Of a DNA stretch of 64,000 nt, positions 48,724 through 48,826 are shown piece after piece (the first letter of the stretch is position 1; every line of letters begins with the position of its first letter). The notes under the pieces were generated by a model, which ran no database searches, was not told where the DNA came from, and worked only from the letters and a program-made list of their open reading frames with translations. The DNA is from Escherichia coli (GTDB lineage: Bacteria > Pseudomonadota > Gammaproteobacteria > Enterobacterales > Enterobacteriaceae), in NCBI RefSeq assembly GCF_003334335.1, contig NZ_QOWQ01000001.1. One strand, given 5' to 3'. The translations under genes were made by a program, and so were the position numbers.

Positions 48724-48826
48724 TCCCCTCGCCCCTTTGGGGAGAGGGTTAGGGTGAGGGGAACAGGCCGGCACTGGCGCGAATATTTACCCTCACCCCG
48801 GCCCTCTCCCTGAAAGGGCGAGGGGG
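48724..48826. repeat. GC-rich composite inverted-repeat element (two inverted ~37-bp units); possibly a Box C-type intergenic repeat
   Basis: Left unit tcccctcgcccctttggggagagggttagggtgagggg; reverse complement of right unit cccctcgccctttcagggagagggccggggtgaggg; family assignment is from memory and unverified. Confidence 0.55.

Follow-up and report, generated by a model that had tools for sequence, protein, structure and literature searches.

A head-to-head doublet of BoxC repeats in the gcvP-ygfF spacer of Escherichia coli and a probable decayed relative between gcvH and gcvP

What is the GC-rich palindrome that follows gcvP in Escherichia coli, and does it have a job of its own at that place? 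The stretch of DNA analyzed here (64 kb, hereafter the window) is an E. coli K-12-type sequence, the reverse complement of NC_000913.3 around 3.03-3.09 Mb, and window positions were converted to K-12 coordinates by the relation window x + K-12 y = 3,094,813. The original prediction had read the element as a dispersed intergenic repeat, possibly of the BoxC type, and not as a terminator. It is flanked by the following features.

44146-45240: gcvT
45264-45653: gcvH
45772-48645: gcvP
48668-48689, plus strand: intrinsic terminator of gcvP, AAAGGCGC-TTCG-GCGCCTTT followed by a T-run
48912-49655: ygfF
49712-51169, minus strand: bglA

The pair of repeats described below is intergenic, between gcvP and ygfF and 76 nt upstream of the ygfF start codon, in a spacer that carries no annotated feature in NC_000913.3. 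The gcvP terminator lies before the pair and is separate from it. According to the repeat finder, it is a perfect 8 + 8 nt hairpin (48668-48687, loop TTCG) with a T-run that ends at 48689, and the element starts 35 nt further on, exactly the distance given in the original prediction. The same hairpin is kept after gcvP in Salmonella and Citrobacter, and near-identical forms are found in Atlantibacter and Cronobacter. Our promoter/terminator scan missed this terminator, apparently by extending the stem into the T-run, and the call therefore rests on the repeat finder and on conservation across genera. The same scan gave no sigma-70-like site in 45500-49100.

Identity and fold of the element

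As the reference set for BoxC we used the 22 E. coli units that Petrillo/Cozzuto et al. 2008 (PMC2267715) give as supplementary data. Two of these are identical to the element, letter for letter: eco:11_BoxC to window 48715-48765 on the minus strand and eco:10_BoxC to 48785-48835 on the plus strand. When these 22 units were made into a profile, nhmmer returned E = 2e-17 for the first (unit A) and E = 2e-12 for the second (unit B). Both halves also stand in Table 1 of Holder et al. 2015 (PMC4666352), where no. 10 is given as 'B mm' at 3,045,989-3,046,024 on the plus strand, which maps to window 48789-48824, and no. 11 as 'A mm' at 3,046,087-3,046,052 on the minus strand, which maps to 48726-48761. 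In that study BoxC, Maher's PIT elements and the TMECO intrastrand triplex motif are one thing, and MG1655 holds 23 copies, all intergenic, with five inverted pairs that always join type A with type B, nos. 10 and 11 among them. In Kaplan et al. 2016 (PMC5100583) the halves appear as HPG1 no. 33 and HPG2 no. 32, placed between ygfF and gcvP. The parts of the element are as follows.

48715-48765, minus strand: BoxC unit of type A ('A mm', TTA second loop); eco:11_BoxC, TMECO no. 11 (core 48726-48761), HPG1 no. 33
48785-48835, plus strand: BoxC unit of type B ('B mm', CCG second loop, GGGGGAAAAG tail); eco:10_BoxC, TMECO no. 10 (core 48789-48824), HPG2 no. 32
48766-48784, no strand: spacer between the unit heads, which forms the loop of the long hairpin and is homologous in other composite copies
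48725-48825, no strand: long palindrome of both units, arms 48725-48763 and 48787-48825
48739-48761, plus strand: unit A's G-rich tract GGGGAGAGGGTTAGGGTGAGGGG, with the purine blocks of the intrastrand triplex known from the literature; also fits the G3+N1-7 quadruplex rule
48790-48810, minus strand: mirror G-rich tract of unit B

Judged by sequence, the element after gcvP is almost certainly a head-to-head doublet of BoxC repeats, type A on the minus strand and type B on the plus strand. The guess at a dispersed, possibly BoxC repeat was right, as both halves are exact members and the pair itself stands in Table 1 of Holder et al. 2015. Because the exact matches and the Holder and Kaplan tables together cover the element, its pairing and its locus, all three have already been published; the gcvP-ygfF pair is already known, and nothing in the element itself is different. 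The union of type A with type B recurs here (TTA loop in unit A, CCGG loop in unit B) and in the four other K-12 pairs. The unit eco:9 is the copy adjoining fabI (envM), reportedly the original BoxC locus (Bergler 1992). The name BoxC is reportedly found in Bergler et al. 1992 and Bachellier et al. 1999, and PIT elements are said to have been described in Hoyne et al. 2000. Scanning of 43000-51000 against Rfam gave no family at or above its gathering threshold for the pair; only sub-threshold matches to generic hairpins (miRNA) turned up, such as MIR1846 at 33.5 vs 77.5 bits, which we discarded as noise.

The position assigned to the element in the original prediction stands, and its extent of 103 nt can be refined: by the published family boundaries, 48715-48765 and 48785-48835, the units are ~51 nt each and the composite is therefore ~121 nt. 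The description of two inverted units, each with a small hairpin of its own, agrees with the repeat finder, which gives arms of 39 nt, 82% complementary and 23 nt apart, with a hairpin inside the left arm (CCCCTCGCCCC-TTT-GGGGAGAGGG) and another inside the right (CCCTCTCCC-TGAAA-GGGCGAGGG). Each unit is built of three related blocks of 9-11 nt, in the order CCCTCACCC, loop, CCCTCTCCC, loop, GGGCGAGGG, so that one strand is able to fold back twice, as a hairpin plus a third strand. On the plus strand, unit A reads CCCCTCGCCCC-TTT-GGGGAGAGGG-TTA-GGGTGAGGGG over 48725-48761, and its type B counterpart lies on the minus strand at 48789-48824. Read along the C-rich strand, a unit runs from the head TTTTCCCCTCACCC through loop 2 (TAA in type A, CGG in type B), CCCTCTCCCC, loop 1 and GGGGCGAGGGG to a short tail, and the heads of the two units are oriented toward each other. 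Both units also fit the quadruplex rule of four G3+ runs with N1-7 loops. Folded as RNA, the plus strand of the pair reaches a minimum free energy of -76.6 kcal/mol, compared with -49.1 +/- 4.1 for 200 dinucleotide shuffles, none of which does as well (z = -6.7), and the minus strand gives z = -6.9. The motif GGGTGAGGG occurs twice in the whole window, both times within the pair, where 0.28 occurrences would be expected.

Spread and variability within and beyond E. coli

The relatives of E. coli place the arrival of the pair. The distance from gcvP to ygfF is 61-71 nt in Citrobacter, Enterobacter and Atlantibacter and 168 nt in Cronobacter; in all four genera the gap holds the terminator only, without BoxC. 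Set against these short, BoxC-free spacers, the E. coli spacer of 266 nt with its pair was gained in the lineage of E. coli. Within the species the pair belongs to a larger polymorphism.

48692-49711 (1020 bp), no strand: variable segment with the BoxC pair, ygfF and a REP-like hairpin at 49673-49700

A query from the end of gcvP to the start of ygfF is covered over at least 80% of its length in 3027 of 5426 E. coli genomes, and similarity ends at 48691 in the rest; the 1020-bp segment is missing in ~44% of the genomes. In the two ygfF-less genomes that we aligned, gcvP is followed by bglA, and 48692-49711 is swapped for ~120 nt with a REP, the first ~40 nt of which resemble the sequence after gcvP in Salmonella. 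The BoxC pair lies 33 nt from this breakpoint. Absence of the pair in relatives and in 44% of strains indicates that it is dispensable after gcvP. Alleles that retain ygfF vary inside the pair: one has lost 6 nt (AGGGTT) from unit A, and another has lost 1 nt from the G-run of unit B and also carries a G-to-A change in unit A. These small deletions match the account of Holder et al., in which TM loci are unusually variable and pairs lose parts yet keep the hairpin. The REP-like hairpin of the variable segment, ACCGGATGCAA...TTGCATCCGGT at 49673-49700, sits between the convergent ygfF and bglA genes.

Other genomic copies of the element exist, as a dispersed repeat implies. A megablast search with 151 nt around the pair matched 4812 of 5426 complete E. 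coli genomes, at a median of 7 places per genome, and only 9 of the 33,834 places were plasmid-borne; the median together with the near absence from plasmids marks a dispersed chromosomal repeat. When the gcvP-ygfF pair was aligned with four other K-12 pairs, the spacer GGGGAACAGGCCRGCAYYGGYGCGAA.. proved to be common to the composites at gcvP-ygfF, fepB-entC and alx-sstT; at hrpB-mrcB it has lost part of its length, and the lldD-trmL pair is arranged tail to tail. Because units and spacer are common to three loci, the head-to-head composite of ~120 bp is itself a repeated unit. This sharing of the composite with other loci probably explains why at least 80% of the 151-nt query is covered in 4100 genomes, compared with the 3027 that carry the gcvP-ygfF locus.

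Three alleles were found at alx-sstT: the full pair, a 75-nt deletion, and a replacement of the pair by an unrelated insert of ~400 nt. The deletion runs exactly between two direct CCCTCTCCC blocks and leaves a single hairpin. It is a clear case of deletion between internal direct repeats and supports the published link of the motif to instability. The replacement insert is GC-rich (~130-500 of the fetched locus, ~400 nt) and has no Rfam match. Neither at gcvP-ygfF nor at alx-sstT did we find a clean empty site or a target-site duplication; both loci gave only segment replacement or internal deletion.

A scan of species-representative genomes with CCCTCACCCYRRCCCTCTCCC returned at least 120 stretches from at least 13 unrelated MAGs, none of those listed belonging to Enterobacteriaceae, which speaks for breadth and is no census. 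The matches listed include MAGs of Contendobacter, Afipia, Polaromonas, two Deltaproteobacteria, Verrucomicrobia and Gracilibacteria. Among them, a third block that had not been part of the search is also present in 116 of 131 testable cores, and 25 of 134 have a head-to-head partner. Since Holder et al. 2015 (PMC4666352) recorded the G/C-rich motif in more than 260 genomes, the breadth of the motif as such was already known.

Several of these matches have a setting of their own. In the MAG GL140_5 the BoxC core is embedded in a lineage-specific repeat of ~125 nt bounded by CTAA/TAA, and in the Polaromonas MAG it is part of a longer repeat with an upstream hairpin, ttgagcgtttc...gaacgctcaa. 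In the Ca. Gracilibacteria MAG JALNXF01 (27% GC, code 25), 14 of the 20 BoxC-like cores among the matches listed lie in frame inside long ORFs of 212-1089 aa, with translations such as PHPNPLPEGEG, ALTPTLSQRERE and SLSLWERVGVR; among the ORFs that harbor them are a LepA/EF-G-family GTPase and IleS. The IleS ORF of the Polaromonas MAG (2-2929 of the fetched locus, minus strand) matches E. coli IleS along its entire length at 47% identity, and carries an insertion of ~40 aa (EPSPPPSPAGERGRRDDLLPRPSGERAGVRG) from a tail-to-tail BoxC-like pair, with the gap at E. coli residue 228/229. It is these in-frame cores of the Gracilibacteria and Polaromonas MAGs, inside genes such as IleS, that resemble Rickettsia palindromic elements (RPE), from which they differ in sequence family and hosts; the E. 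coli BoxC copies, in contrast, are all intergenic (PMC4666352).

The spacer between gcvH and gcvP

The original prediction had also tied the element to the hairpin at 45685-45712 between gcvH and gcvP, in which AGGGTGAGG (45685-45693) pairs with CCTCACCCT (45704-45712). This kinship was borne out by BoxC profile matches on both strands and by an Enterobacter pair at the same site, and it adds one feature.

45663-45734, no strand: putative decayed head-to-head BoxC pair in the gcvH-gcvP spacer (45654-45771), with weak profile matches and an Enterobacter counterpart

The two nhmmer matches have the same head-to-head layout (45693-45674, minus strand, E = 0.005; 45704-45735, plus strand, E = 0.24), are weak, and are not independent of each other because the arms pair with one another. 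In an Enterobacter genome, an intact BoxC pair (E = 2e-11 and 3e-6) stands at the exact position of the E. coli relic and can be aligned to it column for column, the changes in E. coli being mostly C-to-T and G-to-A. The Enterobacter pair supports the view that the relic, as read from this alignment, is a BoxC member by descent. Its G-tracts are broken, so that the triplex or G4 layout is lost. The putative decayed pair is absent from the Holder table, the Kaplan table and the 22-unit Petrillo set. A weak Rfam match to whalefall-1 over its left part (45661-45695, 19.8 vs a gathering threshold of 37 bits) is probably noise.

Every one of the 5426 E. coli genomes carries the relic, at no less than 95% identity and as a single copy, bar one extra plasmid match. 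As sense RNA it is predicted to form three hairpins (45663-45682, 45685-45712 and 45715-45734). In five alleles sampled across the range of identity, all differences fall in predicted loops, and both small stems contain one G-U wobble, which pairs only in the sense RNA. Fold z is -4.35 for the whole gcvH-gcvP spacer and -5.4 for the relic element. When gcvH was located in five other genera and the spacers (~4888-5050 of each fetched locus) were read, REP doublets were found in Salmonella and Citrobacter and other hairpins in Atlantibacter and Cronobacter. The spacers of all six genera fold above their shuffles (z = -3.2 to -7.0) with hairpins of unrelated kinds, and the 25-30 nt ahead of the gcvP start codon are conserved in all six. 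One might speculate that the old relic is retained or tolerated as an intercistronic RNA stem-loop with its three perfect sense-strand hairpins, a suggestion that we advance tentatively and to which we give somewhat less than even weight.

Explanations for the doublet after gcvP

Taken as a whole, our best explanation, which we hold to be very likely, is that the BoxC doublet is a dispersed, structure-prone repeat without a locus-specific job after gcvP. Its narrower form, that the pair has no dedicated function here and its effects are those of structure-driven instability, appears to us evenly balanced. The pair is neither a terminator nor a promoter nor an RNA gene. On our account, the composite of ~120 bp would have entered the gcvP-ygfF spacer in the E. 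coli lineage; whenever its DNA became single-stranded during replication or repair, a hairpin, triplex or G4 fold might hinder polymerases, slippage would then be favored by the internal direct repeats, and the outcome would be small deletions within the element and rearrangement-prone surroundings.

The published physics of the motif bears on this account. Holder et al. 2015 (PMC4666352) showed by CD and NMR that oligonucleotides of the G-rich strand form an intrastrand triplex in vitro, with a Tm of 70-74 C for the 'mm' types, that double-stranded TMECO stays duplex, and that DMS footprinting in vivo reveals no stable triplex; they also reported a polymerase stop ahead of the motif and more rearrangement at TM loci than at controls. 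Given the duplex and the negative footprint, any triplex or other fold in vivo would be transient at most. BoxC thereby resembles H-DNA, intramolecular triplexes and G4 motifs, all of which are purine/pyrimidine blocks that form non-B structures and are tied to polymerase stalling and instability. However, mirror-repeat H-DNA differs from the intrastrand triplex of BoxC, in which a single strand is folded back twice and which is known from oligonucleotides.

Several points count against our explanation or weaken it. The tie of BoxC to variable loci is a correlation, and the repeats may simply build up in spacers that tolerate change. The alternative allele of the 1020-bp polymorphism is Salmonella-like, so that the polymorphism may stem from recombination and not from breakage induced by BoxC. 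Moreover, near-identical cores in distant phyla hint at constraint or function beyond fork-stalling junk.

Hairpins of the REP/BIME kind block 3'-to-5' exonucleases or insulate transcription units. It would be tempting to ascribe a similar role to the pair at the RNA level, with read-through transcripts of gcvP, or transcripts of ygfF that start upstream, folding into the hairpin of about -77 kcal/mol. The very stable fold on both strands is consistent with such a role, as are the strong hairpins, of unrelated kinds, in the gcvH-gcvP slot of all six genera and the E. coli relic there, with its sense-RNA-only G-U wobbles and its variation confined to loops. However, the gcvP-ygfF copy sits past a canonical and conserved terminator, and ygfF-bearing genera as well as 44% of E. 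coli do without the pair. Holder et al. (PMC4666352) further found no gene-class bias, no orientation bias of BoxC units relative to genes and no consistent distance to them, and the earlier experiments, as far as they are cited there, detected neither promoter nor terminator activity, nor any effect on RNA polymerase. We therefore regard an RNA-level element after gcvP as unlikely.

Equally unlikely, in our view, is a selfish mobile doublet of the MITE or REPIN kind, in which the A + B composite would be the replicative unit and an enzyme would act in trans. The likeness to known families is considerable. REP/PU, BIME and REPIN elements are, like BoxC, short GC-rich palindromic intergenic repeats, often inverted doublets with a long hairpin, and REPs occupy BoxC slots: Salmonella and Citrobacter have them between gcvH and gcvP, and E. 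coli has one in the allele that lacks ygfF. However, the two are unrelated in sequence, and BoxC is three-block and triplex-capable whereas REP is a single palindrome: no REP consensus palindrome (of the GCCGGATG...CATCCGGC type) occurs within 48715-48835, and true REPs in neighboring alleles and genera differ in appearance from the BoxC pair. Also, we know of no RAYT-type transposase for BoxC. MITE/ERIC (IRU) elements are, as the BoxC pair is, non-coding units of ~120 bp with long terminal inverted arms spread in enterobacterial spacers, but each arm of the BoxC pair is a repeat unit in its own right, found on its own as well. Mobility would fit the two inverted units, whose short spacer is kept between loci, the gain at gcvP-ygfF and the head-to-head partners in distant bacteria (25 of 134 testable cores among the matches listed). 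Against it, no target-site duplication was found at gcvP-ygfF or alx-sstT, neither of which gave a clean empty site, and no parent or related IS came to light. When the ORFs up to 3 kb from 135 BoxC-like cores (13 genomes, among the matches listed) were clustered, they revealed no linked mobilizing enzyme and no recurring transposase family; what recurs is housekeeping families (ABC ATPases, two-component systems, acyl-CoA ligase and similar). Holder et al. (PMC4666352) likewise reported no link of the motif to transposons, phages or plasmids, in line with the 9 of 33,834 places on plasmids.

Kaplan et al. 2016 (PMC5100583) proposed that the motif switches between G-quadruplex, hairpin and duplex, which here would regulate ygfF. 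Both units do fit the G3+N1-7 x4 rule, CD data indicate alternative folds (G4/hairpin) for the type B oligonucleotide (PMC5100583), and the pair lies 76 nt upstream of the ygfF start codon. Yet NMR assigns the oligonucleotides to a triplex and not to G4, the in vivo footprint is that of duplex, and distance and orientation to genes are inconsistent (PMC4666352); in addition, ygfF orthologues in four genera lack BoxC. Such a switch is, in our judgment, quite improbable. A second, back-up terminator of gcvTHP would explain a GC-rich hairpin 3' of the operon, but it is hardly credible: the letters that come after the pair, GGGGGAAAAGCG (plus strand) and GGGGACTGTCTGAG (minus strand), form no T-run, the promoter/terminator scan reported no terminator-like site overlapping it, the canonical terminator already stands at 48668-48689, the published terminator tests were negative insofar as they are cited (PMC4666352), and BoxC elsewhere sits upstream of genes and between tandem genes (PMC5100583), all of which accords with the original prediction on this point.

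A dispersed, structure-prone repeat thus remains our reading of the doublet after gcvP. For the module in general, one could go further and speculate that the three-block unit is a structural module found throughout bacteria, which propagates itself by way of a host process common to all of them, e.g. template switching at a folded lagging strand, and that it colonizes operon hairpin slots, with old copies domesticated as intercistronic stem-loops in the manner of the gcvH-gcvP relic and even in-frame insertion into essential genes. We think that this is rather improbable.

As a catalogued BoxC (TMECO) doublet, the element after gcvP calls for no annotation as a terminator, sRNA or regulatory site. 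What our analysis adds is small: the gcvH-gcvP relic with its intact equivalent in Enterobacter, the presence or absence of ygfF with BoxC, and the coding insertions outside the window. The breadth of the module across phyla and within genes is a modestly useful by-product. The gcvH-gcvP relic, in a slot that is filled elsewhere by REPs or other hairpins, offers a natural test of whether repeats are retained for RNA structure.
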